A stretch of DNA of 63,234 nucleotides, filler included, from Octopus bimaculoides (Eukaryota), in NCBI RefSeq assembly GCF_001194135.2. It is 5 parts of 4 records of this genome, joined end to end, with 100 filler letters (N's around TTAATTAATTAA, not from the genome) between each part and the next. Parts side by side here need not be neighbours in the genome. Positions count along the whole stretch, not along the records: positions 10,797 to 25,749 come from NC_069009.1; positions 25,850 to 50,761 come from NC_069008.1; 3 more parts are not named here. The stretch is one strand, 5' to 3'. A program made the translations under genes and the position numbers. The notes under the pieces were generated by a model. That model had not been told where the DNA came from, searched no databases, and worked only from the letters and a program-made list of their open reading frames with translations. Positions 11,328 through 35,039 of the stretch are shown here, piece by piece. Numbering within the stretch: position 1 is the first letter of the stretch; each line of letters begins with the position of its first letter.

Positions 11328-12844
11328 TAGGGCATTTCCTGCCTTGCCAGAGGAAGAAAATTTGGAACAATGGAGGTGCAGTGCTACTGCCACGCTGCAC
11401 TCAGCAACACCGTTGAGAACAGATCAAGTGGTGCTTCTACCCGTATACCTTGGGAGACATGCTTCCAAGGTTAGGCTAGAAGACATATCCCCAGAAGTCG
11501 ATGTAGCCTGGCTGGTGGCTGCCATACTGCTAGGCATGGAAGAGAAGGTGGTGGTCTTCCAGGCTACCAGAACACCCCACAAGAACTGGCAAGGGCAAAA
11601 CCTGGACATGGTAATACAGGTTGCCTTGGAAGATATCGAAAGTATTGTAGACGTGACTTTGAAATTCAGAGTGGAAGGGAGTATTCCATGGTGCTATAAA
11701 TGTGGCCTGAAAGGCCACATGAGAGCAGATTATCCTATGTGAAGGCTAAGGAAAAGCGAGAAAGTGGCTGGTGCTCCACTGCCTGCGGAGGCTGCGGAGA
11801 CAGAGAGTGAAGCAGCACCACAGACAAAGACCCGTACCAGCATCAAAGAGGAGATGGACAATGTATGGGAAATAGCTAGGAAAAAGAGAAGAAAAAGACA
11901 CACGCTTTAAATGACAACCCCCATCCCACCCACACCCACTTTACCCTAACCACTCCCTACAGACACCAGCCCTCTCCATGCCCCACCTGACAAAGACAAG
12001 CACACAGGAGCCTCAAATTTACCCACCCTAGCCCTGTAATGAAAAATATGTTATATTGTACAACGGATAAAATGAAGAACTTTATAATGAGATAGACTCG
12101 TGGGACAGAGCGATAAAAGTGGATGTAACAGGAGTAAGGGGCTTGCCCAAATACATTCACTGTGCAGTGGCAAACCCAGAGTATCTTTTGAGATTAAAGG
12201 ATGATGTGGAAGTCTTTGACTGTGAGTGGTGGGTCAAGAAAATAGACGCCAGCACAATGCCAGAACAGGTAAGCTATTTTGATATTTTAAAGTTAAAAAG
12301 AGACTAGAAATAGTACATTTCTAAATCTCTCTGAGAGATTTATGCAGTAGTGATACATTGAAGTAGTTGTATGCTGTCAACTTAATGTGACAGTCCCCTG
12401 AAGGGAATAATACTACTGTTGGTTAGACCTAGGAAGCTGTACCGCTTCCTGTCGGCCTTGACACATTCCCTATGTCCTTATGTTTCCCCCTTGTAAACAT
12501 AAGGACAGGTGCAGCTTCCTAGGTCTAAACAACAGTAGTATTATTCCCTTCATGGGGCTGTCACATTAAGTTGACAGCATACAGCTACTTTATAATATAG
12601 ACATTCTGCGGAAAAGTGGAGATTAGCTGTTGCAAATGGTGTTATAAATAGTGTTATAAACTAGTGTTCTAAAAAAGAAGTTGTATTAACAGGTTCAATG
12701 AAGTCACTTGGAGGTGGGGGCCGAATGGCTTCATTTCATTTTTCATTATTATCTAATTCATCTTTTCCATTGGTTTTTTTTCTTCTTTCCCCACCATGTG
12801 CTGTCCCCTCTGTGTAAGGCTGTAATAGCCAATATCATGAAATT
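11328..12844 (+). mobile_element. ORF1-only (half-LINE-like) retroposon, copy 1
   Basis: ORF1-like frame from the gap edge to 11910 with one stop at 11740-11742 and a zinc knuckle CYKCGLKGHMRADY at 11692-11733 (last C to Y, tgt>tat). The 3' UTR at ~12712-12800 is homologous to 34515-34605. The tail is at ~12802-12844. No endonuclease or RT motif lies between. Confidence 0.7.
12361..12590. mobile_element. Fold-back MITE-like element inserted in half-LINE copy 1
   Basis: Inverted arms of ~85 bp (aagtag.tgtatgctgtcaacttaatgtgacag...ctaggaagctg.acc) plus an inner hairpin tgtccttatgttt/aaacataaggaca. Confidence 0.8.
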
Positions 12845-13153
12845 AAGAAGCTTGCTTCCCAACCAGGTTCTGTTCCTCTGTACATCACCTTGGGCAAGTC
12901 TATTCTCCTATATCCTCAGACCAACAAAGCCTTGCAAGTGAATTTGGTAGGCGGAAACTGAAAGGAAGCCTGTCATGTGTGTGTGTAAGGAAATGTTCTC
13001 TATGTGGCCTGTGTGTTTTCTGTACTTTGTTTATCAATTTGTCCACGTTTTTTTTTTGCAATGTCCTGTACCGAGATATGCATCTATATATACATGTAGA
13101 TGTAGGTATGTACATACATGTACGTATATATGCATATACTCACATATTATTTG

Positions 13154-13214
<61 letters not shown>

Positions 13215-13520
13215 TAACAGGCTTCTTTATATATGTCAGTGTGTTTATGTCAAACCGTCCAACCCGTGCCAGCATGAACAACAGACGTTAAATGATAGTG
13301 TGTGTGTGTGTATGTATCTTTGTATTTGTCTCGCAACCCTCCACTTGACAACGAGTGCTGGTTTGTTTACGTTCCTGTAACGTAGCACTTCGGAAAAAGA
13401 AAGCGATAGGATAAGCACCAGGCTTTAAAAATAAATATTAGTGCTGAGGTTGATTTGTATCGGCTAAAACTCTTCAAACGGTGCACCAGCATGGCCGCAG
13501 TACAACGATTGAAACAAGTG
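12845..13520 (+). mobile_element. SINE family A lacking the first ~15 nt of its head, with microsatellite spacer and 3' body
   Basis: Starts at aagaagcttgcttcccaacc directly after the half-LINE tail. The 3' body ttgacaac..gtgctgg...cagcatggccgcagt..tgaaacaag lies at ~13340-13520. Confidence 0.7.
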
Positions 13521-14349
13521 ACGATGAAAGGTAAGCGTTTTTCATTTGTGTGTGCGCCATTTTATTTACTGTATTACGTTAACACCTGAGAGAATAATGT
13601 TTCATAGTGAGTGAGTGTGGGAGGAAAGGTGGGAGTGAAATACGTAGTTATATAGAGAGGAAGGAGGAAGGGCTATACGACGTAGGAAGACGTCATTGGA
13701 GTAGTGAATGAAATAGTCATAGAGAGAGAGAGAGTAGAGAAGGAGGAGGAGGAGACTAAAGTCAATGACACTGCGTGGGGGGAGGTAAGAGTTAAGGAGG
13801 GAGTGAATTACCTAAAAATTGAGAGAGGCGGAGGAACAGAGAGGAAGTGAAAGTCGATAATATCGTCGGAGGGGTAAGAGTCAAGGAAGGAGTAAATTAC
13901 AACTTGATATAGAGGGGTGGAAGGAGGATGAGGAGGCAAGTCATAGAAAGGGAGAGAGTTAAGTTGGAAGTAAATTCGAGAGTGATTGGGAGAGGAGAGC
14001 AAGAAAGAGAAGGTGAGAGTAAATAGTACTGTGAGAGGGGTGGGTGAGTTGCAGAGTAATATAGAGGGATAAGAAAAGGAGGAGGTAAGTTAACACAGAG
14101 GAATGAGTCAAGGGTTATATGCGTGATATAAAGAGGGGGAGAAGAAAGAAAAGGTGAAAGTCAATGAGACAGAGAAAGGCAAGGATTCAGTAGAAGTACG
14201 AAAAAGAGGGACACATATACACGCTGGCACAGATAAATAGGCATTTATACACACTTACAGAGATGAACAGACACACACACACATACAGTGAGTGAGATAT
14301 ACATACGCAGGTACAAATAAATACACAGAAAGACATACACAGAGAGAGA

Positions 14350-15065
14350 AAGAGAGGCAAAGATGTATTATAGACAGAAAGAGAGAGAAAGAAATATATT
14401 GTGAGGGAAAGCGGGAGAGAGAAGGGGAGGTTAATGAAATAGACGGAAGAAGAGAGAGCGAGAAGGAAAACTTAATGAAGTAGACGGAGGAAAAGAGATA
14501 GAAAGAGTAGAAGATTATAGCAAGCGAGAGTGATAGAGAGAGGATGTTTCAATGACTGAGGGTCGAAAGAGAGGCAAAGATATATTATAGAAAGAAAGAG
14601 AGAGAAAGAAATATATTGTGAAGGAAAGGGGGAGGTTAATGAAATAGACGGAAGAAGAGAGGGTGAGAAGGAAAACAATGAAGTCGACGGAGGAAAAGAG
14701 ATAGAAAGAGTAGAAGATTATAGCAAGCGAGAGTGATAGAGAGAGGATGTTTCAATGACTGAGGGTCGAAAGAGAGGCAAAGATATATTATAGAAAGAAA
14801 GAGAGAGAAAGAAATATATTGTGAAGGAAAGGGGGAGGTTAATGAAATAAATGGAAGAAGAGAGAGTGAGAAGGAAAACAATGAAGTAGACGGAGGAAAA
14901 GAGATAGAAAGAGTAGAAGATTATAGCAAGCGAGAGTGATAGAGAGAGGATGTTTCAATGACTGAGGGGTAGAAAGAGAGGCAAAGATATATTATAGAAA
15001 GAAAGAGTAGAAGATTATAGCAAGCGAGAGTGATAGAGAGAGAGTATGTTTCAATGACTGAGGGT
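14350..15065. repeat. Purine-rich tandem repeat, ~203-bp unit, ~3.5 copies
   Basis: gagaggcaaagat recurs at 14352, 14569, 14772 and 14976, and the later units are near-identical. Confidence 0.9.
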
Positions 15066-15396
15066 GAAACAAGGTAAAGAGTGTAAAGTGTGAGAGTCAG
15101 AATGGGGAATACAGACAGCAAACTGAATTTTAGAAAAGCTGTCATTCAACTGACTACAAAAACACAGGTATGTAGAGATTTACGGGTATATATATGGATA
15201 TATATATATATATATATGTATTAAAGGATATATATGTGTGTGTGTATGACAGATGGGTATGGCAACATATATGTGTGGGTATATATATATATATATATAT
15301 ATATACCCCAATATATATGTTATATATTCTATATATGATACAATAGTTATAGAGGTGGCTGATGCGTGTTTGTACGCACAAACATGATAGGGTACC

Positions 15397-15452
<56 letters not shown>

Positions 15453-15509
15453 CACGTGTGTTAGAACGATGTATATTTACAGAGAACTATAGTTATATAT
15501 GAGCATTGA

Positions 15510-15528
15510 CACATTTACACGTGTGTAT

Positions 15529-15566
<38 letters not shown>

Positions 15567-15585
15567 ATACACACGTGTAAATGTG
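15510..15585. repeat. Perfect 76-bp palindrome with (AT)15 centre
   Basis: cacatttacacgtgtgtatacgg (15510-15532), then (AT)15, then ccgtatacacacgtgtaaatgtg (15563-15585). Confidence 0.9.
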
Positions 15586-15870
15586 TGAATACCCATATAC
15601 ATTATAGGCTAATATACACAAAGATATCTGCCTCACTGTCAAGACGGTCAATAAGCCTGCAAGAAATAGCAGCAGTGTCTCTCTGGAACCACACCCTGTT
15701 GTTTGTATAAAAGGGAAGATATTACAGAAGGTAGCCCTAGGTATACAATAAGCTGGGATGGTCACAGTTGGATGGGACACTTTGATTACAGATTTGCAAT
15801 ATCGTGACTAACCTGGTTCTAAACAATAGAGACTCGTATATCAATAGACTTGCAGAGATCTGTGTATATG

Positions 15871-15917
<47 letters not shown>

Positions 15918-16394
15918 NNNNNNNNNNNNNNNNNNNNNNNNNNNNNNNNNNNNNNNNNNNNNNNNNNNNNNNNNNNNNNNNNNNNNNNNNNNNNNNNNNN
16001 NNNNNNNNNNNNNNNNNNNNNNNNNNNNNNNNNNNNNNNNNNNNNNNNNNNNNNNNNNNNNNNNNNNNNNNNNNNNNNNNNNNNNNNNNNNNNNNNNNNN
16101 NNNNNNNNNNNNNNNNNNNNNNNNNNNNNNNNNNNNNNNNNNNNNNNNNNNNNNNNNNNNNNNNNNNNNNNNNNNNNNNNNNNNNNNNNNNNNNNNNNNN
16201 NNNNNNNNNNNNNNNNNNNNNNNNNNNNNNNNNNNNNNNNNNNNNNNNNNNNNNNNNNNNNNNATATATATATATATATATATATATAGATATATATATA
16301 TATAGATGATTTTGTCATTTTCCTTTCTTCGCTCTCGAGTATATTATCTTCGGTTTTGGACTTATATTTTAATATGGAATATTTATGATAGATG

Positions 16395-16512
16395 AGATCG
16401 ACTTTGTCTTTCATCCTTTCGGGGTTGATAAAATAAATTCTAGTTAAACACTGGGGATCGACGTAACCCTTCATCCAAATTGCTGGCTTTGTGCCAAAAC
16501 TTGAATCGAATA
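16395..16512 (+). mobile_element. SINE family B, 5'-truncated
   Basis: gatcgactttgtctttcatcctttcggggttgataaa core. Confidence 0.65.
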
Positions 16513-16959
16513 TCTAAGATAAATAGATCGATAGACTGATAAATAGATATACGTATGTATTGACTGTATGTATACATTGTCTGTTAATGGCTAGCAAACC
16601 GAAACTTCGAAGTCACTGTAAACATTGATTAATACGTATGTACTCTACATATGTCACTGTGTTAACACACACACACACAAAATTCTATATGTACACATAA
16701 CTTCTCTGTTTCTTTCTACACACAGTATGATGCATTAAGATGTAAACATATTTTCGTACGTTTGTGTGTGGGTGGGTCAATGTATGAATGTGTAAATTGC
16801 CTGTATATATAGATATGTATATATATATATATATATAACATACGTCTGTGTGTGTGTATTGCCTTTATATATTTGAGTGCATTTTGCGTATAGCTACATA
16901 TGTTTATATTTATCGGGCGGGTAATATATGCATATGCTGTTGTGATGTGTGTCTACAAA

Positions 16960-17022
<63 letters not shown>

Positions 17023-17112
17023 CTCGCGCCCACTCGTTTCCTCTATATAGATGTGTGCGTATATGTGTGTATACATAGACACACATCTGTGTACGATTAT
17101 TATACGTGCGTT

Positions 17113-17249
17113 CAGGGCCGTCTTTTCATCTTTAGACGTCTGCAGTTTTTATTTATTAACAGAAACCCCACACCATATTTAAATTAAATACTGCCCCCTT
17201 CCGCCCACTGTGCAATTGCTTAGTAAACCCATGCCTTTTGACGGCGCTG
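17113..17249. mobile_element. Small hAT-type MITE
   Basis: TIR cagggccgtc / gacggcgctg. The 8-bp flanks cgtgcgtt and tgtacgtc differ only by transitions. Confidence 0.45.
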
Positions 17250-17807
17250 TGTACGTCTCCAATTTAAACCCCATCATGGGACGTGAGAAGTCTTTACGAC
17301 AGCCAGGAGCAAAGTGCAACCTGCAGGACTTCCTGAAAGGCACGCCAATGCAATATTATTATCCTGAATATTTTTAGTAGTGCGGCTCGTCTGCTGATGA
17401 GCCATATCTTATGCTGCCCGCTTCTTGGAAAAGGTTGCCCCTACCTGTTAAAGAGGTCACTGCACCTGCTAGAAATAACTACCGGACGTCCCTTGGAAGC
17501 ACATTTTACTTTTGTGGGATGTAGTCTAGGGCATCTTTTATCTTGTTTTAGTCATTGGGTTGTGACCATACTGGGGCATCACCTCGAATGGTTGTAGTCG
17601 AGCAAATCGACCCCCAGTACTTTTTTTTTTTTTTTTCAAGTCTGGTACTTATTCGTTTGGTGACTTTCATCGCGCTGCTAAGTTATGAGGACATAAATAA
17701 ACCAGCACCAGTTGTGAAACTGTGAGCGCGTGGGTGGGGCAAGCAAAGACACACACAAATATCATCATCATCATCATTTTTTCATGCTAGTATAGGTTGG
17801 ATGTGAA

Positions 17808-18144
17808 GGCGTATGGCTCAGTGGTTAGAGCGTCGAGCTTACGATCGTGAGGTTGTGAGTTCGAATCCCGGACCGTGCTGCGTGTTGTGTTCTTGAGCAA
17901 GACACTTTATTTCACGTTGCTCCAGTTCACTCAGCTGTAGAAATGAGTTGCGACGTCACTGGTGCCAAGCTGTATCGGCCCCTTTGCCTTTCCCTTGGGT
18001 AACACCGGTGACGTGGAGAGGGGAGGCCGGTATGCATGGGCGACTGGTAGTCTTCCACAAAAAACAACCTTGCCCGGACTTGGGCTCGGGAGGGTAACTT
18101 TCTAGGTGCAATCCCATGGTCAGTAATGACCGAAGGAAGGTCTC
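17808..18144 (+). mobile_element. SINE family C, near full length
   Basis: A-box tggctcagtgg, B-box gttcgaatcc, CORE/V-like gtgttcttgagcaagacactttatttcacgttgctccag, and 3' tail ...ttctaggtgcaatcccatggtc. Confidence 0.85.
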
Positions 18145-18528
18145 AACAATGGGTTGGATGGTTTGATATGAACTGGCGAGCCAAAAGGATTTGCTAAGCT
18201 CCAAATGTCTATTTTGGCATGATTTCTACAGCTGGATATTCATCCTAATGCCAACCACTTTGCATCAACGCTTCTATAACTTCCCAATGCAAACCCATTT
18301 TTACCTCTTTGCCTTGTTACTTGCAGCGACTTCCGTCCAGGGTGGCTTCTCACAAATGCTGACCACATGTGACAGTCGGTTCTAATGTTCCAGCAACAAA
18401 CTAATGCTTCTGCCAGTGGCTCAAAAATCCAGCTTGCAAATTTGACAAATACTTCACTGGATCCCAAGTCAGGGACTGACATGTAACACAAGGTGTTGGG
18501 TTCCTACTGGATTTTGCTGTACTGTGTG

Positions 18529-18828
18529 GAGGCGTAATGGCCCAGTGGTTAGGGCAGCGGACTCGCGGTCATAGGATCTCGGTTTCGATTCCCAGACCGG
18601 GCGTTGTGAGTGTTTATTGAGCGAAAACACCTAAAGCTCCATGAGGCTCCGGCAGGGGATGCTGGCGAACCCTGCTGTACTCTTTCACCACAACTTTCTC
18701 TCACTCTTACTTCCTGTTTCTGTTGTGCCTGTAATTCAAAGGGTCAGCCTTGTCACACTGTGTCACGCTGAATATCCCCGAGAACTACGTTAAGGGTACA
18801 TGTGTCTGTGGAGTGCTCAGCCACTTGC
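18529..18828 (+). mobile_element. tRNA-derived SINE family E, running into a gap
   Basis: tggcccagtggttag A-box and gtttcgattccc B-box followed by a distinct body. Confidence 0.7.
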
Positions 18829-19136
18829 NNNNNNNNNNNNNNNNNNNNNNNNNNNNNNNNNNNNNNNNNNNNNNNNNNNNNNNNNNNNNNNNNNNNNNNN
18901 NNNNNNNNNNNNNNNNNNNNNNNNNNNNNNNNNNNNNNNNNNNNNNNNNNNNNNNNNNNNNNNNNNNNNNNNNNNNNNNNNNNNNNNNNNNNNNNNNNNN
19001 NNNNNNNNNNNNNNNNNNNNNNNNNNNNNNNNNNNNNNNNNNNNNNNNNNNNNNNNNNNNNNNNNNNNNNNNNNNNNNNNNNNNNNNNNNNNNNNNNNNN
19101 NNNNNNNNNNNNNNNNNNNNNNNNNNNNNNNNNNNN

Positions 19137-19420
19137 NNACTTATTCTATCGGTCTCTTTTGCCGAACCGCTAAGTTACAGGGACGTAAACACACCAGCAT
19201 CGGTTGTCAAGCGATGTTAGGGGGACAAACACCGACACACAAACACACATACATATACATATATACGACGGGCTTCTTTCAGTTTCCATCTACCAAATCC
19301 ACTCACAAGGCTTTGGTCGGCCCGAGGCTATAGTAGAAGACACTTGCCCAATGTGCCACGCAGTGGGACTGAACCCGGAACCATGTGGTTGGTAAGCAAG
19401 CTACTTACCATACAGCCACT
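19137..19420 (-). mobile_element. SINE family A
   Basis: Low-divergence reverse complement of head, spacer and part of the body. Confidence 0.85.
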
Positions 19421-19805
19421 CCTGCGCCTTCTTGATTCTTGGCTATCTTTTCTGCCTCTCTCCAGTTGTATCCCTGCTTTTTCAGCTCTACCTCAGTGTC
19501 TTACATCCAGCTATTTTCAGGGTGTCCTCTCCTCCATCTCATGGATGTTGGTTGCAGCGAATGATAATCACCAGTGACCTGGTTGGCAAATCCCCTCCGA
19601 TGGTTAACAATCAATGGTAGGATAACAATCCAGTACACCAAAAAGACACGGATAAAACAAATTGAAGACCTGAAGTCACAGCACTTCACCATGGATCAGA
19701 AAGCATGCAATAACATCATCACCAGAGTCTGTCATCCAGGGGCACCCATAGCAGCATATTAGTTGAGGAGACAGCCACCCACTCCAGTTGCCAAATAGGG
19801 CATAG

Positions 19806-20040
19806 GGCGGCGAGCTGGCAGAAACGTTAGCATGCCGGGCGAAATGCTTAGCGGAATTTCATCTGCCGCTACGTTCTGAGTTCAAATTCCGCCAAGGTCG
19901 ACTTTACCTTTCATCCTTTCGGGGTCGATAAATAAAGTACCAGTTACGCACTGGGGTCGATGTAATTGACTTAATCCCTTTGTCTGTCCTTGTTTGTCCC
20001 CTCTATGTTTAGCCCCTTGTGGGCAATAAATAAATAAGAT
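19806..20040 (+). mobile_element. SINE family B, tail type 2 (half-LINE-like tail)
   Basis: Full head and core, then ttgtctgtccttgtttgtcccctctatgtttagccccttgtgggcaataaa. Confidence 0.88.
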
Positions 20041-21099
20041 AGGGGTTTTATTTACATAAGTACTTAAAACAACTAACCAGAGCAAGGTATATGTTAGTCA
20101 GGAGAAGAGCAGTGTCCATCAACCTTCACAAGTGACAGCTGGTTGAGTTTGTACTTGCAGAATGACCACCTGACCCTTGGTTGCATGGTCTTGTTTTTGT
20201 TGCATGCATTCCTGCTCTGAAGGCGACTTTCATCCTTCCGTCCACTCACAAAGCATAAGAAACCATGTGAAGGTATATGAGCTCACATCTTTTTGGATTC
20301 TTTCACAGATTTGGATATTTTAAAGTTTTGTATATTGATTGGTATATTGATGTAATTTTTCAAGCTAAATCTCAATTTGAGATTCATTTATTACCAGAAA
20401 AACTTAGAAAAAAAATTTTACAGCGGTTCAAAATTTGATCATTTTTCATCCAATCAGAAAACAGGAATCAGACTGTGTGATAGCTAGACAGAAATAACAC
20501 AGGCATAAAATGATATCACTCATTCAAACTTGAGCTGGTGATTGCAGTGGTTGAAGGTCTCACAGTCATGCAGTACAGCATCCTTGTTACAATGAAAACA
20601 AGGCAGACTACAGCTTTGGTTGTTACTATGGAAACAAGAGACCACTGTGAGATTTATGGTCATGTGTATAATTTTCATATCCTTGATTGTGAATATACGA
20701 TCTTAATGGAGCAGGGTTAAAGCAATGTAATCACAGAAATAACTTCCAACAACCAACACAAGACTCCATCGCCTTCCCCTCCTCAAACAAGACATATTAC
20801 TCTTTTTATAAGAGTTTGACGAGTCCATCTTGAAATCCCACAAGGATGTTAATGTCTATCATCACAACAATAATGGTGGCTTTTGATTGGCTAAAATCAC
20901 CCCAAATTTTCAAACTTTAAAAGCTATTACCTTTTTATTTATCAATTTAAGGCAAAAATTAATCTAATTTAATTTTAATAACAGTCATCACTCATTAGTG
21001 TTGTGTTCTTCTGACTGAACAACTTTCAGTAAGTCTGGCTTTGCTCCCGTGGGCTGATGTAATACAGTTGAACATCCAACGCACAGAGCAACAGTTTAA

Positions 21100-21321
21100 C
21101 CCTCTAGCATTTGAACCAGCCATATCCAGGCAAATTAATCTACCTATGTTATCTTTGAACCGGCCAGATCTGGTCTCTCACACTTAGCTCTACAATATTA
21201 TTCTCAAAATAAACAATCATGTCATTGAAAAGCTCAAAGCTACAAGGTAAGGCATAACTAATTAATATCAATGGGAATAATTAAGCATTACATTTGACAA
21301 AGTAACCTAATTACTAAAGGG
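21100..21321. mobile_element. piggyBac-type MITE
   Basis: TTAA at 21096-21099 and 21322-21325 flank CCCT...AGGG termini (ccctctagcatt / aattactaaaggg). Confidence 0.75.
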
Positions 21322-21599
21322 TTAAGCATGACTGAATACTGTGGTGATTTTATACCATTCCAGACATTTGGTATCCATAAAGTAACTATTTGGAGATTTG
21401 CTTGCTTCATGCTCTTGCTTGATGGGGCTGGGGGTCATCCGAGGTTACTGGTCCCAGAGACAATGCATAGAGGCCAGGTCCACCAGTGCTCTCAATCACT
21501 GGTGGTTCCGTACCATCCTCTCTGCAACCTCTAATGTAACATAAAAGTCTATTTTTACATTTCCTTCTTTCCTTTTCTAAGGACAATTGACAAGACAAC

Positions 21600-21995: not shown

Positions 21996-22006
21996 GCACA
22001 TATCCA

Positions 22007-22435: not shown

Positions 22436-22437
22436 TA

Positions 22438-22648
22438 GGGCAGTGAGCTGGCAGAACCATTAGCAGGCCAGGCAAATGCTTAGCTTAATAGTATTTCGTC
22501 TGTCTTCAAGTTCTGAGTTCAAATTCCTCCAAGGTCGACTTTGTCTTTAATCCCATTGGGGGTTGATGAAATAAGTACCAGTTGTGTACTGGGGTTGATG
22601 TATCTGACTCAACCTCACCCCCAAAATTGCTGGCCTTGTGCTAAATCA
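22438..22648 (+). mobile_element. SINE family B, tail type 1
   Basis: Head, core and tail as at 8531. Confidence 0.75.
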
Positions 22649-22679: not shown

Positions 22680-23075
22680 TGGATGTCCTTAGCATTCAGG
22701 GCCCACGTCTCTCTTCATGTAGAATTGTTGTTTGTAGACGTGCATCTTACAACCTTCTTTTCACTCGGAGAGAGAGACCTTTGGTTGTGAACAGAGGTAA
22801 AAGCTGTCTGATTTTTGCTCTATCCTATTCTTATTCTAGCTATTACACTTTCTGTACCTCCTCCCCCACTACTAATTTGGTCCACTATGCAGCAGAAATT
22901 ATCCACTACCTCTAAAGAATCTCCGGGGCATTTGACAAAATCAATTTCCCGAGTATCTGTAGCTTTTGTGGATCTTGTGCATCTTCCACATATGAACACT
23001 ACTTTCAATGATTACCTTCCTATTATTCCACTGCACCTCTTGTGTGTCCATAGCTTACACTGAGTACACCATGTA
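22680..23075 (-). mobile_element. RTE-like LINE RT C-terminal fragment with Cys-rich segment
   Basis: VVFICGRCT...LEVVDNFCCIVDQISSGGGGTESVIARIRIG. Homologous to 25849-26140. Confidence 0.7.
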
Positions 23076-24700: not shown

Positions 24701-25242
24701 AAGTTTGTCAATAGCCAGATGGAGGAGATGTCTTCCTGGGGCTACAAGCTACAGTAGCATCAACCCTTAAGGGTCAGCCACATTTAGGTGGCAAATATAC
24801 TTCACGTTGTTGTGCTGCTACTGTTTATACATCGTTCAGAGATTTATTATTGCTTGTTTACAATTTTTTGAGATCAGTGAATTTTCGTCACTGCAAAAAG
24901 GATATATGTATTTGCACTGGGAGCCCTTTGCATCGAAGATTGGTGATTGTCATGCGCTGACGAAGGCTAAATACCCAGAAACCTGGGTCTGTGTGTATCA
25001 CGTCAGATCGACGATGGGAAGGATGACTTCCCTTTGCAAATACCAACAGGGCACAGAAAGTGTGTCAATAGCCAGCTGGAGGAGATGTTCTCCTGGGGCT
25101 ACAAGCTACAGTAGCATTCGCCCTTAGTGGTTAGCTGCATTTAAGTGGCAAATATACTTCACAATGTCGTGCTGTTACTGTTTATACCTTGTTCAGAGAT
25201 TTATTATTGCTTGGTTCCACTTTTTTGAGATATCGGTGATTG

Positions 25243-25245
<3 letters not shown>
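24701..25245 (+). repeat. ~1.5-unit tandem repeat (period 357 bp), retrozyme or Penelope pLTR-like
   Basis: tgtcaatagccag.tggaggagatgt... starts at 24706 and 25063 with ~175 bp of clear similarity. A hammerhead-like motif lies between. Confidence 0.75.
24951..24995 (+). ncRNA. Minimal type I hammerhead-ribozyme-like motif
   Basis: catgcg-CTGACGA-aggctaaataccca-GAAA-cctgg-GTC-tgtgtg. Stem I forms 6 bp with 3 G:U pairs, and stem III is short and near-palindromic. Confidence 0.5.
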
Positions 25246-25283
<38 letters not shown>

Positions 25284-25345
25284 CATTACCGAGTGCAATA
25301 AATGGGTGCGGGTAAAACGAAATTTTACCTTTAATTTATATAGCA

Positions 25346-25586
25346 ATAAGAAAATGGAAGGGGAACATGTGGTACTCATCAACTTGCAGACATTGTATTA
25401 TGTCAATTTGCCTGTTTATTTTTCAACTAAGAGGACAGGACAATAAAAACAATATACAAACACATATGACATATGTCATATCAGTAATGTCTTGTCCTCT
25501 TAGTTGAAAAATAAACAGGTAAATTGACATAATAATACAATGTCTGCAAGTTGATGAGTACCACATATTCCCCTCCATTTTCTTAT
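25346..25586. mobile_element. Fold-back (MITE-like) element
   Basis: ~97-bp inverted arms at 25346-25442 and 25488-25586, with an inner palindrome atatgacatatgtcatat. Confidence 0.8.
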
Positions 25587-25714
25587 ATATATATAAATTT
25601 TTTTTTTTTTTTTTTATTACTGAGAACATATTTCTTTCGTGGTTAGATGATTCGGCATCTATTTCTAGCATATAGGGATCCACATTTGCTGGTCATTCCT
25701 CTTATTTTTGTATG

Positions 25715-25749
<35 letters not shown>

Positions 25750-25848
25750 NNNNNNNNNNNNNNNNNNNNNNNNNNNNNNNNNNNNNNNNNNNNTTAATTA
25801 ATTAANNNNNNNNNNNNNNNNNNNNNNNNNNNNNNNNNNNNNNNNNNN

Positions 25849-26140
25849 NAGAGGTAAGAGCTCTCTGAACTTTGCCCAGGCTATTCTTATTCTAGCAGCT
25901 ACACTTTCAGTGCACCCACCCCCACTACTAACTTGATCACCCAGATAGCGGAAGCTATCAACTACCTCTAGTTTTTCTCCCTGGAATGAGACAGAAGTTA
26001 TTTCCTGTTTGTTTACAGTGTTTATTGCGCCTGAACATCTGCCACATACAAAAACTAACTTCCTAGTTAACCTGCCTTTGATATTGCTGCACCTCTTATG
26101 TGTCTATAGCTTGCACTGGGTACATCTTATAGAGTTACTA
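25849..26140 (-). mobile_element. RTE-like LINE fragment, same region as 22680-23075
   Basis: LEVVDSFRYLGDQVSSGGGCTESVAARIRIAWAKFRELLP-like translation. Confidence 0.75.
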
Positions 26141-27077
26141 CCTACTCAGGATAAAAATTCTTAAAATATTTGAAACAAACTCAAAATAAAGAAACAGGTT
26201 AGATATTGATTGTTGTATAACAAAATAAGATAGCAGAGAGTGTAAAGTAATATTTATGTTGAATGATTTCACAGTGACAATGTGACTGACATGTCAGGTG
26301 TGGCAGTATCAGTTGACGATATGAATTTACCCCAGGTATGTCCATTCTTCTCTTCTCGTTAATTTAAGAAAAGTGATTCTGTCTAAAATTAACGATGATT
26401 ATCTTGATGGTTATGGTGGTGGTGGTGTTTTGTGCGTGTGTGTGTACTTGATATTGTTGGCGTTGTTATTGTTGTTATCCTCTCTTTCAGTTATTTGACC
26501 AAATGGCTAAATTGCAGCCACACATATATTGTCCTGGATATACATATGACTGCATCATGCTGACACCATACAGCACTGGTTTCATGTGTGTCGCATGAAA
26601 TGCGGCCACATCTACCTCTTGCGCTATCTCTAGGGAGCGCTGTAATCTCTAGCACAGACCAAAGATCCCCAAAATGTTCAATGCCATTCCCTGCATATAT
26701 TTGGTTTTATATCAGAGTGACCTTCTCCTAGAGACATGCTTCAACAAAAGCTGAGGGGCACCTCACTCCCAGTGGTCTTTCAGCACGCCGGACACCATCC
26801 CGGAATTTCTGCGTATCCGTGCTATTGCTAGATAGCCGTTGAGCCTGCACTAGGTCCATCCGAGCTTTCAACAGGTCTTGTTATTAATCCTGCTGGGTTT
26901 CTAGCAACCCTCCTCACCAGGGTGGCCTGGTGGGGGTGCCAGTTTAGTCGCCGGCAACCCGACCATGCAACAGGTTGTATTGGATTACATGTTACCAGTA
27001 GCACTTATGAGAGCCTCATACGTGACCTGACACATACATACATACATACATACATACATACATACATACATACATAC

Positions 27078-27720
27078 ATTGTAATTTTGGATAGAAAAGA
27101 GAAACTGTGTGCAGTTGTGGAAACCAGCTGCCCAGTGGATGTTAACAAAAACCTAAAGATCAGTGAAAGAGAGAATTCCTCCACTGAACTATTGAGAAAT
27201 CTGCAGTTACTCTATCAGATTACAAGTTCAGGTTTATACCTGTAATTATTGAGGCACTGGGATATGTAACGCGCTGCCTTAATATCAATCTTGAGAAATT
27301 AGGCTTCTCAAAACCAGAAAGGAGAAAGACTATAGATCCAAGTCTACAGATCCAAGACTATAGATCCAAGACTATAGATTCGAAAACTATAAATCCAAGC
27401 CTTCACTTGAACTGTAAAAATCTGCAAAATTTTCCAGAAGTTTATCATTTAAGTACATATGAGCATGTCTAGATATGCAAATATATGCATGAGAATACAT
27501 ACATAAAACAAAACATACAAATCTGCACACATACAAACATATGTACATACATACATACATACATACATACATACATAAATACATACATACATACATACAT
27601 ACATACACATAAATACCCTGCTGATGTTGTTGAAATTCCAATGAAGGAGCTTTGGATCTAGGTTAGAAACTGACTCTTTCTCTATTGACAAGAAATCTTG
27701 AAATAAACTGAATAATAACA
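27078..27720 (+). mobile_element. 5'-truncated LINE 3' end with restriction-like endonuclease (R4/Dong-like)
   Basis: IVILDRKEKLCAVVETSCPVD (the part after PD of a PD-(D/E)xK motif), then FRFIPVIIEALGYV and TVKICKIFQKFII* ending at 27452. The 3' UTR has an internal (TACA)n, and both ends abut (TACA)n. Confidence 0.78.
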
Positions 27721-27733
27721 TACATACATACAT

Positions 27734-27898
27734 GTGGCTGTGTAAAAAGTAGCTTTCTTAGCAACTACATGGTTCTGGGTTCAGTCCCACTGCATGGCAC
27801 CTTGGGCAAGTGTCTTCTACTATAGCCTCAGCCCAACCAAAGCCTCGTGAGTGGATTTGGTGGACAGAAATTGAAAGAAGCCCGTCGTATATATATAT

Positions 27899-27953
<55 letters not shown>

Positions 27954-28160
27954 TGTATCTGTGTTTGTCCCCCCAGCATCACTTGACAACCGATGCTGGT
28001 GTGTTTACATCCCCCGTAACTTAGCAGTTTGGCAAAAGAGACTGATAGAATAAGTACTAGGCTTACAAAGAATAAGTCCTGGGGTCGATTTGCTCGACTA
28101 AAGGTGGTGCTCCAGCATGGCTGCAGTTAAATGACTGAAACAAGTAAAAGAGTAAAAGAG
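27734..28160 (+). mobile_element. SINE family A, full bipartite copy
   Basis: Head, TG microsatellite, 3' body and gtaaaaga tail. Confidence 0.88.
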
Positions 28161-28683
28161 AGTAAAGAGTACATACAGACAGACAGACAGACAAACAGAC
28201 ATAGGAGAGATGTTGTTGTTTGAGACAGACAAAGTAAAGTATGTACCTGCATAGAGATCAGCTACCTTGTTGATGTGAATATCTCTTTGAAAATCAACTA
28301 CTTTGAAACCACCAGCTTCTATATTCAGATCATGAATTCTCATTTATACTAATAATAAATGGTACTTTTGATTCTGTGAGTGAATGCTTTAAGTGACAAT
28401 CCAGATAAGCTGCGATTTTCACAAAAAGAAATCAACTAGCTAATTTGCACATTACAAATACAATCTGTAAGTGGAACAGTAAAAATATGCAGGACTTTAC
28501 ACAAGTTTAAAGGGTGAATCCATTTTTGTTATCTGCATTGTAATGATGAATCTTTGTATCTTTGTTAGAAATCAGATCCTTCCACAGAGGAAGAATCTAG
28601 ATAATTAAAAACAGAAGAGAACGTACATACATATATGCATGCATGCAAGCATACATACGTACTTACATACATACCTGCAATAA

Positions 28684-29145
28684 ATTGAGTGCTAAAAAGT
28701 TCCTGACTTTAAGGGTATTGTGAAAGCCCAACCTTCTGACTTCTTTTACAGGGCTTAGAAAAACTGAAGGACAACTGCAATAAGTGTGTGAATTTGAGAG
28801 GGGAATATCATCATCATCATCATCATCGTTTAACATTTGCTTTCCATGCTAGCATGGGTTGGAAGATTTGACTGAGGACTGGTGAACCAGATGGCTGCAC
28901 CAGGCTCCAATCTGATCTGGCAGAGTTTCTACCGCTGGATGCCCTTCCTAACGCCAACCACTCCGAGAGTGTAGTGGGTGCTTTTACATGCCACTGGCAC
29001 GAAGGCCAGTCAGGCGGTATTGGCAACGGCCATGCTCAAAATGGTGTATTTTATGTGCCACCTGCACAGGAGCCAAAATTATAATTAACTGATCCTCCTG
29101 CATTTTCTTTTACCTAAAGCCAGGAACATTTCATCACCCCCTCAT
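28684..29145 (+). mobile_element. Mariner-derived MITE split by a family D retroposon
   Basis: gtgctaaaaagttcctgacttt ... aaagccaggaacatttcatcacc TIRs and a C-terminal transposase remnant GLEKLKDNCNKCVNLRGEY. Another copy lies at 42540-42715. Confidence 0.7.
28808..29075 (-). mobile_element. Short retroposon family D
   Basis: Low-divergence copy with (cat)n tail. Confidence 0.88.
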
Positions 29146-29453
29146 ACATAAACATATACATATTACGTGTGTACGTACGTACACACATAATGGACTCTCC
29201 CATTGATGGACCTGCACAAATGATTTGTTTATAGTGATCAAATGTTCATACCACACATTAGCTCACTCTCTCCATCAAATCAATGTTATCTGAACAGGTG
29301 TACTGTGTGCCACAAGTCAGGTATCAAAATGATCGCGGAGCAACATGAGTTGAAGTGTTTTTCTCAAGAACACAACACACCACCTGGTCTAGGAACTGAA
29401 ATTATGATTTAGCAATTTTGATTGCAACACCCTAACCACTAGGCCTTGCACTC

Positions 29454-29484
<31 letters not shown>

Positions 29485-29535
29485 CATACATACAAACATG
29501 CATACATGCATGCATGCATACATACATACATGCAT

Positions 29536-29573
<38 letters not shown>

Positions 29574-30077
29574 ACACAAATACAAACATGCATGCATGCA
29601 TACATCATGCACAGATGGGATGCCGAAAGCACTTTTGCCAAAGGACAAGAAGCCAAAACGAAGAAGCCAAACAGACACAATGCCAAACACCCACAAAGTT
29701 GAACAGATACTAATAAAAAAAAACATTCCAGCCTACATAGTTTAATGACTAATTCACTAATATGGCACTCAAGATTTAATGAGATTAAATTTTAATTTTC
29801 GTATGTCTTTTTGGCATCTTGTCCACTTGTGATGTTGGGCTGTTCATTGATGATGTCACAACCAGATTTCACCACTTCTCCCAGTCTTTTGTTGCCTTCT
29901 GTGAGTTGCTGAAATCAAGGACCATCCACTCAGGTGACTATTGATCCAGTATGGGCTCTGGTCTGGTTGTCACCATCATGAATGTAGTCATGGCCAAAAG
30001 TTTAGAATAAGTTTTAAAAAATTAAAATTATTGTGCCCAAGTACAATTCAATTCAAATTTATACAATGTATATAAAG

Positions 30078-30408
30078 GGTAAAGGGTAAAGACCCCACTT
30101 CAGTAATGATTGACAATGGAATTGCACCTAGAAAGTTACCCTCCAAGGCACAAGTCTGGACAAAGTTGTATATGGAAGACCAGCAATTGCCCATGCATTC
30201 CAACCTCCCCTTTCCTTGCCAACATTATCCAAGGGAAAGGCAAAGGCCAATACAACTTGGTATCAATGACATTGCAAGTCATTTCTAAAGCTGAGTGAAC
30301 TGGAACAACATGAAATAAAGTGTCTTCCTCAAGAACACAACACATACACTCCAGTCTGGGAATTGAACTGACTACCTCATGATTGTGAGCCTGACACTCT
30401 AACCACCA
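30078..30408 (-). mobile_element. SINE family C
   Basis: Reverse complement of the 17808 copy, including the tail. Confidence 0.75.
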
Positions 30409-30639
30409 TTTGGACATTTAATATAAAAATTATAATCTAATTTTCAAACCTATGTCCCAAACATTTAGCCATGACTGTAACATGGGCAAGTTAACATGGC
30501 TGCACTCATTCCTTTCCAAGTTGTAAGCCACAACCATATACTTTTACCTAGGACATGCCTTGTCCTTGAACACAAGGCTGTTGACCTGAGCAGCTTCCTC
30601 CACTTTGGTCATAATGACTCATAAGGGCTGGTTTCCTGG

Positions 30640-30835
30640 TTTCTCTAGCATATAAATTCCCCACCGGGATGGGACACCAGTCTGTCACAGGATTACTCAT
30701 TTTTTTGCCAGCTGAGTGAACTGAAGCAATGTGAAATGAAGTGATTTGCTCAAGAACACAATGCATCACCCAGTCCAGGAACTGAAACCACAATCTTACA
30801 ATCATGAATCCAACACCCTAACCACTAAGCCATGA
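30640..30835 (-). mobile_element. SINE family C variant
   Basis: Head and core in reverse complement. Confidence 0.65.
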
Positions 30836-31719
30836 AACTTGGCCAGTAACTCCTTGGAAAGCCTTACCCAGAGTCTTCCACATATTGGGTGCAGTGTTAA
30901 CATCATCCCCTCACTTAATTTAGCTCACCAACTGAAGCCATCAAGTGAGATAATAGGAGTTGAATGAGAACCAGTGATGCCTCTCCACCTGACCATCTCT
31001 AGCAAGGTGCAGCTGCCAGGCACCAAAGGTAGTACCTCTATTCAGACCCCTCCCCTCTACACCCTATGCATGAAATATGGTAGATAAAAACACTAGTGCC
31101 TCATTACTGCCTTTCTGAGCCACTTTGACAACAATGTCATCATTTTCAAGAGTTTTCCTGGTATTCATCAATTTTACATCTACATTATTTCTTTGTTAGT
31201 GAATGCATCATCAAACTGGTGGGTCACAAGAGCCTGTGCAAGGCCCCTCAGTGACAGCAGGACTTACTACAGACTCATGGTTTAGGACATCACTATAATG
31301 CTGCTGCCATCTGGCCATGATTTCATCTCTGCCTCACTCTCTCTCTCTTCGATTTTACCACCCGGTTCACCATCTCTTCCTCCCACCTTAACCCTAACTC
31401 TGTATAAACCAGCTCAATGCTCTGCTTTCCCTAACTGAGTTTGAATTCCTCTGCTGATAGAATACGAAATTCAGAAAATGAACAGATAAGAATTTTATCC
31501 TTTCAACCTCATTCATGTACTCCTGTTTTTGCAGAGATCATAACCCTATCCCCCCACCTGTTCATTCTTTATTATCTATCTATTTCTTTACCATGTAAAC
31601 ATAGCCCAATAGATTAGTCTTCCTTGTTTGTCTTAAATTCATGAATATCCGTTAATCGTCACATTTTATTTATTTTGTTTTATTCAAGTTTATCATTTCT
31701 TTAATTCATTCTCTCTAAA

Positions 31720-32124
31720 TTTGTCTACCATAGTATACAAGTGCAGAAGTGGCTCTCACCTAAACTTGCTGGCTCACGGTACGCCTGCCCTCCCACCCTC
31801 TGCACCTTCACCGGAAGTTCCTATCCTCTGTCATCCTTGGTTGTCTCCCGCGAACACATCTAAGGGCCTAATGTCATCCCAACCCCAACCCAGGATTTAT
31901 CTATCATATAGCACATAAAAATGGTGTAGTGTATGCAGGTTGTAGGCTATTGTTTGTTTATGAATTCTGCCAAATGCAAGCTTTCTTTTCAAGTACAGGA
32001 CACTGCTGTCCCTCATCCCAGAGTCTCACAGGCCCACACCTCCCACACCCTCAGAGTTGGCACTCTCAACGTCGGCACACTGAAAGGTAGGACTGGTGAG
32101 ATTGTTGAGATGCTTGAACGGAGA
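31720..32124 (+). mobile_element. 5' end of an RTE-like LINE (APE endonuclease start), running into a gap
   Basis: TLRVGTLNVGTLKGRTGEIVEMLERR matches the conserved N-terminal strand of APE domains. Confidence 0.82.
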
Positions 32125-32916
32125 NNNNNNNNNNNNNNNNNNNNNNNNNNNNNNNNNNNNNNNNNNNNNNNNNNNNNNNNNNNNNNNNNNNNNNNNNNNN
32201 NNNNNNNNNNNNNNNNNNNNNNNNNNNNNNNNNNNNNNNNNNNNNNNNNNNNNNNNNNNNNNNNNNNNNNNNNNNNNNNNNNNNNNNNNNNNNNNNNNNN
32301 NNNNNNNNNNNNNNNNNNNNNNNNNNNNNNNNNNNNNNNNNNNNNNNNNNNNNNNNNNNNNNNNNNNNNNNNNNNNNNNNNNNNNNNNNNNNNNNNNNNN
32401 NNNNNNNNNNNNNNNNNNNNNNNNNNNNNNNNNNNNNNNNNNNNNNNNNNNNNNNNNNNNNNNNNNNNNNNNNNNNNNNNNNNNNNNNNNNNNNNNNNNN
32501 NNNNNNNNNNNNNNNNNNNNNNNNNNNNNNNNNNNNNNNNNNNNNNNNNNNNNNNNNNNNNNNNNNNNNNNNNNNNNNNNNNNNNNNNNNNNNNNNNNNN
32601 NNNNNNNNNNNNNNNNNNNNNNNNNNNNNNNNNNNNNNNNNNNNNNNNNNNNNNNNNNNNNNNNNNNNNNNNNNNNNNNNNNNNNNNNNNNNNNNNNNNN
32701 NNNNNNNNNNNNNNNNNNNNNNNNNNNNNNNNNNNNNNNNNNNNNNNNNNNNNNNNNNNNNNNNNNNNNNNNNNNNNNNNNNNNNNNNNNNNNNNNNNNN
32801 NNNNNNNNNNNNNNNNNNNNNNNNNNNNNNNNNNNNNNNNNNNNNNNNNNNNNNNNNNNNNNNNNNNNNNNNNNNNNNNNNNNNNNNNNNNNNNNNNNNN
32901 NNNNNNNNNNNNNNNT

Positions 32917-33390
32917 GAAGCGCACCTCCACAGTGGCGTATTTTCTCCCTCTCGTAATGTAAGTTGTAAGTCTTTTCAATTCCTTGATACTCTCTTCTAT
33001 GGCTTCTATCAGCGCAACTTCTATTTTTCTTGTAATTGTCTTCACGGTTTTAAATATCACAGTTCTTCTTAACACAATGGCTGAAATCTCTTCAGGTGGC
33101 GTTAGTTTCAGAGTGTTACTTTCTTTGGGGATTAATTTTTCACTCTCCTTCATCTTTCGAGGCTCCACCTTTATCTTGCAGACCTCCAACTCTTGCACGT
33201 TCACTCCTCTGCTCGTTGCAGTTGCATAACTTGGGCCTCCCTCCTGCATCTTTTCCATTCTCCCACAATGGGGAACAAAACAACAATTAACAAATTAACA
33301 ACAGCAACAGTTCTAACAACAATTCAAATCAAATAACAATGGCAACAATGCAATAAATATTTCAACATAAACTCATGCACAAACTCACAG
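32917..33390 (-). mobile_element. Half-LINE-like ORF1 element, copy 2 (5' UTR and ORF1 start)
   Basis: ATG at 33258. TLKLTPPEEISAIVLRRTVIFKT...KYATVEVRF aligns to copy 3 TLKLAPPGEISAIMSGRAVIFGT...KCVTVAVHF. The rest is lost in the gap, so absence of ORF2 cannot be seen for this copy. Confidence 0.68.
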
Positions 33391-33444
33391 AGACGAAATA
33401 CTGCTTAGCATTTTGCCTGGTGTGCTAACGATTCTGCCAGCTTG
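33391..33444 (-). mobile_element. SINE family B head only
   Basis: Reverse complement reads aagctggcagaatcgttagcacaccaggcaaaatgctaagcagtatttcgtct and stops exactly where copy 2 begins. Confidence 0.8.
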
Positions 33445-34671
33445 TGCAACAGTTGGATGTCCAGGAGGTGGGGTGGATCCTCGAGGGATGAAGGAGGGTG
33501 AGGAACTCATCTCGGAAGAAGGTGGCACTCTGAAACTGGCGCCACCTGGGGAGATTTCGGCCATAATGTCCGGAAGAGCTGTGATATTTGGAACCATAAG
33601 GACGACTGCAGGAGAGGTGGAGGTTGTACTGATGAAGGCCGTGGAGGAGTGTCAGGGAGTTGAAGGGACTTACAGCTTGCATTGCGAGAGGAAGTGCGTC
33701 ACTGTGGCGGTGCACTTCAGAACAGAGGAGGAAGCAATAAAGCACTCCACAGAGGCTATAAGGTCAGAAGAATGGATGCTCCTGCCTTCGTACTGCGACA
33801 AACGTGTGGCCAAGGTGCGAGTGGGTGGGGTGCCGCCCGAATTGGGAGAGGAATGGCTGATGACAGCAGTAACATGTAGTGTGAGGGATAGGNNNNNNNN
33901 NNNNNNNNNNNNNNNNNNNNNNNNNNNNNNNNNNNNNNNNNNNNNNNNNNNNNNNNNNNNNNNNNNNNNNNNNNNNNNNNNNNNNNNNNNNNNNNNNNNN
34001 NNNNNNNNNNNNNNNNNNNNNNNNNNNNNNNNNNNNNNNNNNNNNNNNNNNNNNNNNNNNNNNNNNNNNNNNNNNNNNNNNNNNNNNNNNNNNNNNNNNN
34101 NNNNNNNNNNNNNNNNNNNNNNNNNNNNNNNNNNNNNNNNNNNNNNNNNNNNNNNNNNNNNNNNNNNNNNNNNNNNNNNNNNNNNNNNNNNNNNNNNNNN
34201 NNNNNNNNNNNNNNNNNNNNNNNNNNNNNNNNNNNNNNNNNNNNNNNNNNNNNNNNNNNNNNNNNNNNNNNNNNNNNNNNNNNNNNNNNNNNNNNNNNNN
34301 NNNNNNNNNNNNNNNNNNNNNNNNNNNNNNNNNNNNNNNNNNNNNNNNNNNNNNNNNNNNNNNNNNNNNNNNNNNNNNNNNNNNNNNNNNNNNNNNNNNN
34401 NNNNNNNNNNNNNNNNNNNNNNNNNNNNNNNNNNNNNNNNNNNNNNNNNNNGTGACAAAGTAGGAAAAAAGAACAATTGTAGATAGTATATATAATGGTT
34501 CAAAGGGTACCGCATGGGAGTGGGACCCATGTGGCTATTTTCATTTTTTTCATTATTATATAATTTCATCCCATTTACATTCGTTTTATGTTTTTTGTCC
34601 CCACTGTGGTCTTGTCTGTCCTTGTGGTGTCCGCATCTGTGTTTAGGGCTTTATGCTTAATAAAGAAATTG
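33443..34671 (+). mobile_element. Half-LINE-like ORF1 element, copy 3 (5'-truncated, gap 33893-34451)
   Basis: EAIKHSTEAIRSEEWMLLPSYCDKRVAKVRVGGVPPELGEEWLMTAV aligns to copy 1 TATLHSATPLRTDQVVLLPVYLGRHASKVRLEDISPEVDVAWLVAAI. The 3' UTR and AATAAA (34659-34664) follow the gap. Confidence 0.68.
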
Positions 34672-35039
34672 GTATTTCGTCTGCCGTTACGTTCTGAGTT
34701 CAAATTCCGCCGAAGTCGACTTTGCCTTTCATCCTTTCGGGGTCGATAAATTAAGTACCAGTTAACGCACTGGGTCGATGTAATCGACTTAATCCCTTTA
34801 TCTGTCCTTGTTTGTCCCGTCTATGTTTAGCCCCTTGTGGGCAATAAAGCAATAAGAAACGTTAGCACGCCGGGCGAAATACTTAGCGGTATTTCGTCTG
34901 TCTTTACGTTCTCAGTTTAAATTCCGCCGAGGTCAACTTTGCCTTTCATTCTTTCGAGGTCGATAAATTAAGTACCAGTTGCGTACTGGATCGATCTAAT
35001 CCAAAAAATTTCGGGCCTTGTACCTAGAGTAGAAAAGAA
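34672..35039 (+). mobile_element. Two tandem head-truncated SINE family B copies
   Basis: The first starts at gtatttcgtct (34672) and has tail type 2. The second starts at agaaacgttagc (~34855) and has tail type 1. Confidence 0.88.

Follow-up and report, generated by a model that had tools for sequence, protein, structure and literature searches.

Tx1-like LINE lineages and tail-sharing passengers likely insert at fixed positions in the tRNA-like heads of octopus SINEs

Insertions of retrotransposons into short interspersed elements (SINEs) were analyzed in a 63,234-nucleotide stretch of DNA from Octopus bimaculoides (NCBI RefSeq assembly GCF_001194135.2; hereafter the window, which joins five parts of four genomic records) and were followed through the 2.34 Gb genome. 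In the window, the tails of element copies termed copy 1 and copies 2 and 3 (family A), as well as a tail of SINE-B itself, adjoin sequences of two SINE families, SINE-A and SINE-B. The favored explanation, to which we assign a probability of about 0.85, is that distinct long interspersed element (LINE) lineages of the L1/Tx1 group, and tail-sharing elements bearing only the first open reading frame (ORF1), each insert at one fixed position in a SINE head, likely by means of the LINE's endonuclease. This explanation draws on the LINE anatomy, the site bias, target-site duplications (TSDs), truncated copies lying between the head and the remainder of one SINE, arrays joined through TSDs, and a target site that follows the lineage of the second open reading frame (ORF2), all of which are directly visible in the sequences.

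The preference was assessed by collecting the tails and reading the sequence downstream, as the preliminary description had proposed, in BLAST samples of the 30 best hits per family; the queries for these families contain no target sequence, those for the LINE 3′ ends stopping before the target. The enrichment is strong. All 28 intact tails of the SINE-B-site LINE lineage (reverse transcriptase (RT) lineage 1; 30 loci, two without a tail) are located at GGTATTTCGTCT in SINE-B, and 23 of the 27 intact tails of the SINE-A-site lineage (RT lineage 2; 30 loci, three without a tail) at AAG(A/T)AGCTTGCTT in SINE-A, while the remaining four comprise two off-target tails, one that meets a gap following AAGT and one that joins SINE-A at a later position. 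Among the first 30 of 42 exact family A tails, 21 enter SINE-B at CGGTATTTCGTCT, two enter another element via the same motif and seven lie elsewhere, giving 23/30 on site, and 17 of the 24 loci of the copy 1 family occupy the SINE-A site. The flank preference of all four element sets exceeds the 20% in one repeat that is used as a criterion in PMC4494074. Chance matches to the target motifs amount to 0.18% and 0.10% per position (up to three mismatches, four offsets; 279 kb of unselected flanks), and none of the 16 tails of related zf-RVT LINEs, taken from an unselected family search, is on either SINE site. At least five tail types, split 10, 11, 5, 2, 1 and 1 as counted by eye from 30-mers, occur among 30 of the 115 exact tail-target junctions at the SINE-B site, and ORF1-like frames are present upstream of several of them.

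Other targets were observed for elements with related tails. None of six further matches to copy 1 relatives with a different tail end is on the SINE-A site, and several of the relatives with the other tail end (L161, L162, L166, L173, L174, L176; L157, L172) lead into AAAGAAAGAG-like sequence and two into one and the same AAAGCAGTTCACTGTGAG motif. LINEs with the same tail type have an apparent fixed target of their own around GCTACT(C/T)CAG/GCTAG (L181, L205, L198, L204) or around CCAGACC...AGCCACTGACCAC (L190, L191, L200, L154), the latter forming their own ORF2 lineage.

Family A elements are ~1.7 kb long and encode one ORF1 with a CCHC knuckle and no RT; zf-CCHC scores over the cut-off in two of five ORF1 fragments and weakly in copy 1. 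The passenger ORF1 is homologous to the ORF1 of an RT-bearing copy (E 3e-13), and RT-bearing elements at both sites were reached via tandem arrays (L211, L228), which supports the earlier proposal that site-preferring endonuclease/RT elements occupy SINE heads. Exo_endo_phos was detected at E 8e-10 in L368, a member of the SINE-A lineage, in which the endonuclease was scored, RVT_1 in four fragments covering both lineages, and zf-RVT over the cut-off in L283 and under it in L355. The closest solved structures are those of the human L1 endonuclease/ORF2p (E 5e-13). In the full-length copy L357, the order is head-TSD-ORF1-RT-tail-TSD over ~5.2 kb, gaps included. With an apurinic-type endonuclease, RT, C-terminal zinc finger, TSDs, 5′ truncation and no long terminal repeat (LTR), the elements are, by these sequence features, members of the L1 group of non-LTR retrotransposons. 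A CCHC zinc knuckle in ORF1 is a feature of the Tx1 clade, to which the elements likely belong; homologue searches and the ESM Atlas returned domain families, no clade name and no protein named Tx1. Full-length ORF2 relatives with 35-46% identity (P0046-P0054) were also observed on long contigs.

In a tree of ORF2 segments (42 readable segments from 90 loci, this genome's elements only), each site corresponds to its own lineage, with support of 99 and 98. One tail and one enzyme for all four junctions, as first supposed, is ruled out, since at least two ORF2 lineages with different sites are present and copy 1, copies 2/3 and SINE-B carry three related but distinct tails. In the proposed mechanism, the endonuclease of each LINE would nick its own SINE-head sequence and reverse transcription would be primed there; specificity would be carried by the endonuclease, possibly with help from target sequence that the element RNA carries at its ends. 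The ORF1-only elements, and SINE-B copies ending in a tail termed tail 2, would be mobilized in trans through the common tail, and SINE heads may represent a low-cost landing site, a selective argument close to the safe landing sites of the preliminary description.

It is conceivable, although we consider it unlikely, that the target is chosen by RNA-DNA pairing instead of the endonuclease, whereby transcripts of SINE-embedded donors prime at nicks in homologous SINEs and a chance first landing perpetuates itself. Beside family A, SINE heads more often carry variants at positions 39 and 51-54 (position 39: 5/25 vs 1/152), an indication that element RNAs may start with target-like sequence common to the copies. 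Co-transcription of the target can strengthen R2 targeting (PMC4494074). Pairing alone is nevertheless at odds with the convergence of at least five tail types on one base and with a site that follows the ORF2 lineage. It also sits poorly with two off-target insertions, L097 and L268, which start with a partial target motif and have normal TSDs; of these, L097 is complete and without a SINE, and its TSD of ~22 bp begins like the target. Pairing may add to the choice made by the endonuclease rather than replace it.

A less probable account is that of composite masters, in which one element landed in a SINE and the head-element-remainder units, as well as the SINE dimers described below, were copied whole by read-through of RNA polymerase III (Pol III) or II (Pol II). 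A truncated composite RNA would lose its head, yet heads adjoin many truncation points. All 27 readable 5′ ends among the 30 best family A matches follow a SINE-B head (26, including the window's own) or a tandem TSD (one), and the truncated RT copies L239, L245 and L233 lie directly behind a SINE-B head with different truncation points. In the SINE-A lineage, 10 of 21 readable 5′ edges are directly behind a SINE-A head, and resolved 5′ ends of the SINE-B lineage comprise 10 with a head or tandem TSD and four without, 16 more being unresolved. The 17-bp TSD of L362 repeats a private variant of its own target on both sides, and the arrays L211, L228 and L371 join unrelated families through one TSD; TSDs at a preferred site and tandem arrays had both been anticipated. 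The SINE subtypes downstream of the elements are balanced (12:12) and unclustered on the element trees (6 changes against 7.9 after shuffling, and 9 against 8.5). Taken together, the varied truncation points behind the head, the private TSD variants and the arrays through TSDs indicate that the insertions are mostly independent, and composite masters as the main LINE route are refuted by the heads abutting many truncation points, the mixed arrays and the unclustered subtypes.

Several observations weigh against independent, site-specific insertion, and some of them are what composite masters would leave. In the SINE-A lineage, 10 of the 21 readable 5′ edges lack a head, and for 10 truncated copies on the SINE-B site no head is present within ~8 kb (six of family A, and four of the five RT copies followed up). 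In a search of 17 loci for one TSD around a headless element plus SINE, L098 is a clear case of hitch-hiking, its single TSD enclosing a truncated element and the SINE end, and L240 is a weak one (9 bp). The window's own insertion shares variants with L032 across the junction to ~60 nt inside the SINE, and by this resemblance may be a duplicate of L032. The element trees are poorly resolved, and tree A keeps three tandem copies under the SINE label; furthermore, no intact autonomous copy was found among the LINE loci sampled. The position-39 variant beside family A is likewise compatible with a composite donor. On these data, hitch-hiking is real but minor.

SINE-B is highly abundant, with 12,799 exact copies of one head 25-mer and 7,779 of tail 2. 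Another SINE-B, entered at AGAA(A/T)CGTTAGC, follows 34 of the first 70 exact copies of tail 2; the other 36 mostly begin at AGA(A), with G, A and A at the three positions in 30 of them, and TSDs of 6-30 bp in 29. The specificity of tail-2 SINE-B would be less strict, for AGA(A), and would cover its own head as well. The upstream part of tail 2 resembles the SINE-A-site LINE and its last ~30 nt the SINE-B-site LINE, which gives SINE-B, at this level of resemblance, the shared 3′ tail of a LINE-SINE partner. Tail-2 SINE-B also lands in SINE-A (L008, L028, L029), once at the site of the SINE-A-targeting LINE, and short tandem repeats made of the first 20-35 nt of the SINE-B head were seen at L291, L293/L294 and L307.

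Ordinary 5′ joining predicts doubled heads, whereas only 23 exact ones exist genome-wide, at least four of them tail-2 insertions into older heads; the dimers therefore call for either a homologous 5′ join or a dimer master. In the former, the 5′ end of tail-2 SINE-B is homologous to the target and could make the 5′ join by pairing, which would yield a seamless dimer with no doubled head. Private variants at +5..+30 are common to both halves more often than expected: 23 against an expected 9.6 were counted in 64 dimers (p 0.0003), and 9 against 2.6 in the unbiased set of 34, which excludes four loci chosen for doubled heads. Among dimers whose second half has T at +4, the first half also has T in 62 of 100 (those listed of 185, by eye), as against 6/24 if the second half has A (p 0.001), and in the T set the second halves are older (12.6% vs 4.5%, n=28). 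L306 and L313 have classical 18-bp TSDs at the same site. The equal age and fixed composition of a single-master dimer family were not seen, as the divergences of the two halves show no positive correlation (rho -0.24, -0.16) and the second halves reach 31% and include several subtypes. Insertion with seamless homologous 5′ joining is consequently regarded as the probable origin of the dimers from these sequence comparisons. Several points count against it: the age difference in the unbiased set is not significant (second vs first half 8.0% vs 6.1%, n=27, p 0.12), 11 of 29 T-dimers mismatch at +4, no LINE was found at this site among the loci sampled, the second halves are skewed to one subtype (24/34), and a surplus of shared variants at +60..+90 is unexpected under a short join. 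The last two points leave room for some master-derived dimers or conversion, and a minority of dimers may have arisen in this way; the skew and the scarcity of doubled heads are also those expected of copied composites.

The location of the cut sites in the heads bears on transcription. Rfam and ARAGORN at its default threshold detected no tRNA in the SINE-A or SINE-B head. Relaxed ARAGORN called 61 of 165 SINE-B heads, all in sense, against five shuffled and none reversed, which is a weak match; the commonest named call is Arg(TCG) (18), because of which the main SINE-B site is placed at an anticodon-arm-like stretch. For SINE-A, four of 26 heads were called vs none shuffled, and box-like motifs were judged by eye; the A- and B-box consensus used throughout is that of general knowledge. 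SINE-B thus shows, weakly, the tRNA-related head with A and B boxes of a tRNA-derived SINE. Its head contains two A-box-like motifs, at 11-21 and ~31-41, and since the tRNA-like fold can begin at the second, an added 5′ extension is suggested. The SINE-B cut sites lie at positions 15 and 47, and the B-box-like motif at 73-85 is downstream of both, as it is of the cut in SINE-A; an insertion would accordingly break the Pol III promoter of its target because the A-box is separated from the B-box.

For this reason, the earlier idea that Pol III promoters are placed upstream of passengers, and with it the proposal that the elements capture the SINE promoter for their own transcription, is unsupported and appears improbable. 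The 5′ ends do include head-derived bases, and a whole SINE-B stands upstream in some arrays (L150, L359), but the B-box-like motif ends up downstream of every cut site, and 42 of 54 family A 5′ hits (overlapping loci counted) have at least four T in a row within 200 nt, three such runs being present in the first 200 nt of the RT copy L357. Moreover, an RNA bearing open reading frames normally needs Pol II.

All four junctions of the preliminary description are present at the places given, with corrections in detail. The first lies on contig C29 and the other three on contig C28, so the interval that unites them spans the artificial joint at 25750-25849. Copy 1, an ORF1-only non-autonomous non-LTR element of the SINE-A-targeting group, occupies 11328-12844 on the plus strand; its 5′ end is lost in an N gap, its ORF1 fragment (11329-11739) matches zf-CCHC at E 0.029, under the cut-off, and its tail ends at 12844. 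At junction 1, this tail is followed by the SINE-A remainder (12845-12979, plus strand), which begins at the target AAGAAGCTTGCTTCC and lacks the first 22 nt, not ~15 as had been stated. A 230-bp palindromic insert at 12361-12590 in copy 1 (76% arm identity, absent from copy 1 relatives) resembles a miniature inverted-repeat transposable element. The tail pattern first proposed for all junctions matches only two SINE-B copies (20007, 34825), and the former belongs to a solo full SINE-B with tail 2 (19803-20039, plus strand) outside any other SINE, a counter-example within the window.

Junction 3 is formed by a minus-strand SINE-B head stub (33444-33391) that ends in GTATTTCGTCT, the left TSD copy being 33391-33403, and by the adjoining copy 2 (32916-33390, minus strand), which comprises the 5′ untranslated region (UTR) of a family A element and the beginning of its ORF1. 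At junction 2, the family A 3′ UTR and tail (34452-34670, plus strand; tail at 34643-34669), probably the 3′ end of copy 2, leads into a SINE-B remainder (34671-34854, plus strand) from GGTATTTCGTCT at 34671, the right TSD copy in the anticodon-arm-like region, to tail 2 (34827-34853). Junction 4 follows, with a second SINE-B (34855-35038, plus strand) that lacks its first 14 nt, starts with AGAAACGTTAGC at 34855 and ends in tail 1; the cut at position 15 is inside the first A-box-like motif and not just after the A-box, as had been described. Junctions 2 and 3 are both real, but they were listed as separate junctions and are probably the two ends of one insertion with the TSD GTATTTCGTCT, on a 977-bp contig flipped between N gaps. 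This reading follows from the fact that L032/L062 is the closest element to both the copy 2 5′ end (95%) and the 34452-34668 tail (98%), whereas no other locus is more than 80% similar to the ORF1 fragment at 33444-33892 (plus strand). This fragment comes from a more distant relative (73% to copy 2) and faces the SINE stub head to head; the element that ends in the 34452 tail probably did not have it as its 5′ part.

Contigs from two of four public DNA runs bridge junction 3 (33347-33433), none of the public contig pieces shown bridges junction 2 or 4 by 31 letters on each side, and the orientation of the 32916-33892 contig is left undecided by them. The head-to-head joint at 33444 is covered in three public runs by one 335-bp contig, which extends 28 letters beyond it on the shorter side. 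An origin of the junctions in the collapse of abundant repeats during assembly, or in unequal crossover or gene conversion among them, is most improbable: the assembly is gappy near repeats, the 32916-33892 contig is probably flipped and the dimers share variants at +60..+90, yet the junctions are constant to a single base, carry TSDs, are bridged at junction 3 in independent runs, and are occupied by none of 16 tails of related LINEs with similar tails. Elsewhere in the window, two intact-looking C2H2 zinc-finger array reading frames (36208-37587 and 46145-47317; 459 and 390 aa) are ~70% alike in DNA, and fragments of other LINE families with endonuclease- or RT-like frames (2989-3596, 22793-23068, 25850-26124 and 31930-32124) are unrelated to the targeted elements.

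A broader proposal, for which we see about even odds, is a closed LINE-SINE loop, in which a Tx1-like radiation splits the commonest SINEs into private sites and one SINE with a LINE-group tail inserts into itself in about half of its copies, the scar being erased by homologous 5′ joining. If so, each SINE burst would make new targets for the LINEs that move that SINE, and self-targeting could account for many of the apparent dimeric SINE families. No class of repeats in octopus genomes is larger than the SINEs (PMC8967140). If SINE heads receive about half of the copies of one SINE and the majority of those of several LINE families, the clustering of repeats and their copy-number landscapes would reflect enzyme targeting and not only selection or chromatin, and repeat libraries could be misled by dimers. 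Sister ORF2 lineages whose short targets differ within a single genome would constitute a natural series for mapping changes in the specificity of apurinic-type endonucleases, which bears on tools for site-specific gene insertion.

Octopus tRNA-derived SINEs were reportedly described by Ohshima and Okada in 1994, the OR elements being said to be Arg-related. SINE-B resembles them in its very high copy number and in a head that weakly matches tRNA-Arg(TCG), and is at most a candidate for OR1, OR2 or OK. That work is cited in PMC4758252. The target classes listed in reviews are rRNA, tRNA and snRNA genes, microsatellites, telomeres and transposons (PMC4640811, PMC8869645). The literature searched (Repbase and subscription papers being outside its scope) yielded no description of SINE heads as insertion targets and no Tx1 target in octopus, and the passages searched by term in PMC13282606, PMC8967140 and PMC12988792 mention no such target or nesting. 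Tx1 elements that target other transposons are known; the use of SINE heads in this role, together with a SINE that likely targets itself, is likely what is new here.

R2 offers a precedent for homologous 5′ joining. As in R2, for which co-transcription with the target is noted in PMC4494074, target sequence on the element RNA may aid integration here, at the 5′ ends and in the SINE dimers; unlike these elements, R2 uses a restriction-like endonuclease and a 28S rDNA target. In tRNA genes, the insertion sites of Dada DNA transposons are concentrated at the A-box and the anticodon (PMC8869645), similar to the sites in the A-box-like motif and the Arg(TCG) anticodon-arm-like stretch described here. 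NeSL-1_TV, LIN15_SM and LIN25_SM also target tRNA genes (PMC4640811). In contrast to the octopus elements, Dada (with a DDE transposase) and these three (with a restriction-like endonuclease) have tRNA genes and not SINE copies as targets (PMC8869645, PMC4640811). Xenopus Tx1L inserts in Tx1D, Keno in U2 snRNA genes, and Kibi and Koshi in microsatellites; these are sequence-specific LINEs with an apurinic-type endonuclease and a multicopy target, like those in octopus, and differ in the target itself (PMC4494074). Among crocodilian Tx1 elements, other targets include LTR elements, Harbingers and microsatellites, and the Tx1-Mar LINEs with their SINEU passengers target Mariner-N4_AMi (Kojima 2015, PMC4494074). 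The latter system is a close parallel in that a LINE and its non-autonomous passengers use one fixed site in an abundant repeat, tandem copies sandwich the TSD, truncated copies attest to independence, and families vary in strictness (crocodilian values of 90%, 23% and 13%). Unlike the crocodilian target, which is a DNA transposon (PMC4494074), the octopus targets are tRNA-like SINE heads, with three sites in two SINE families, and here one SINE lands in its own head.

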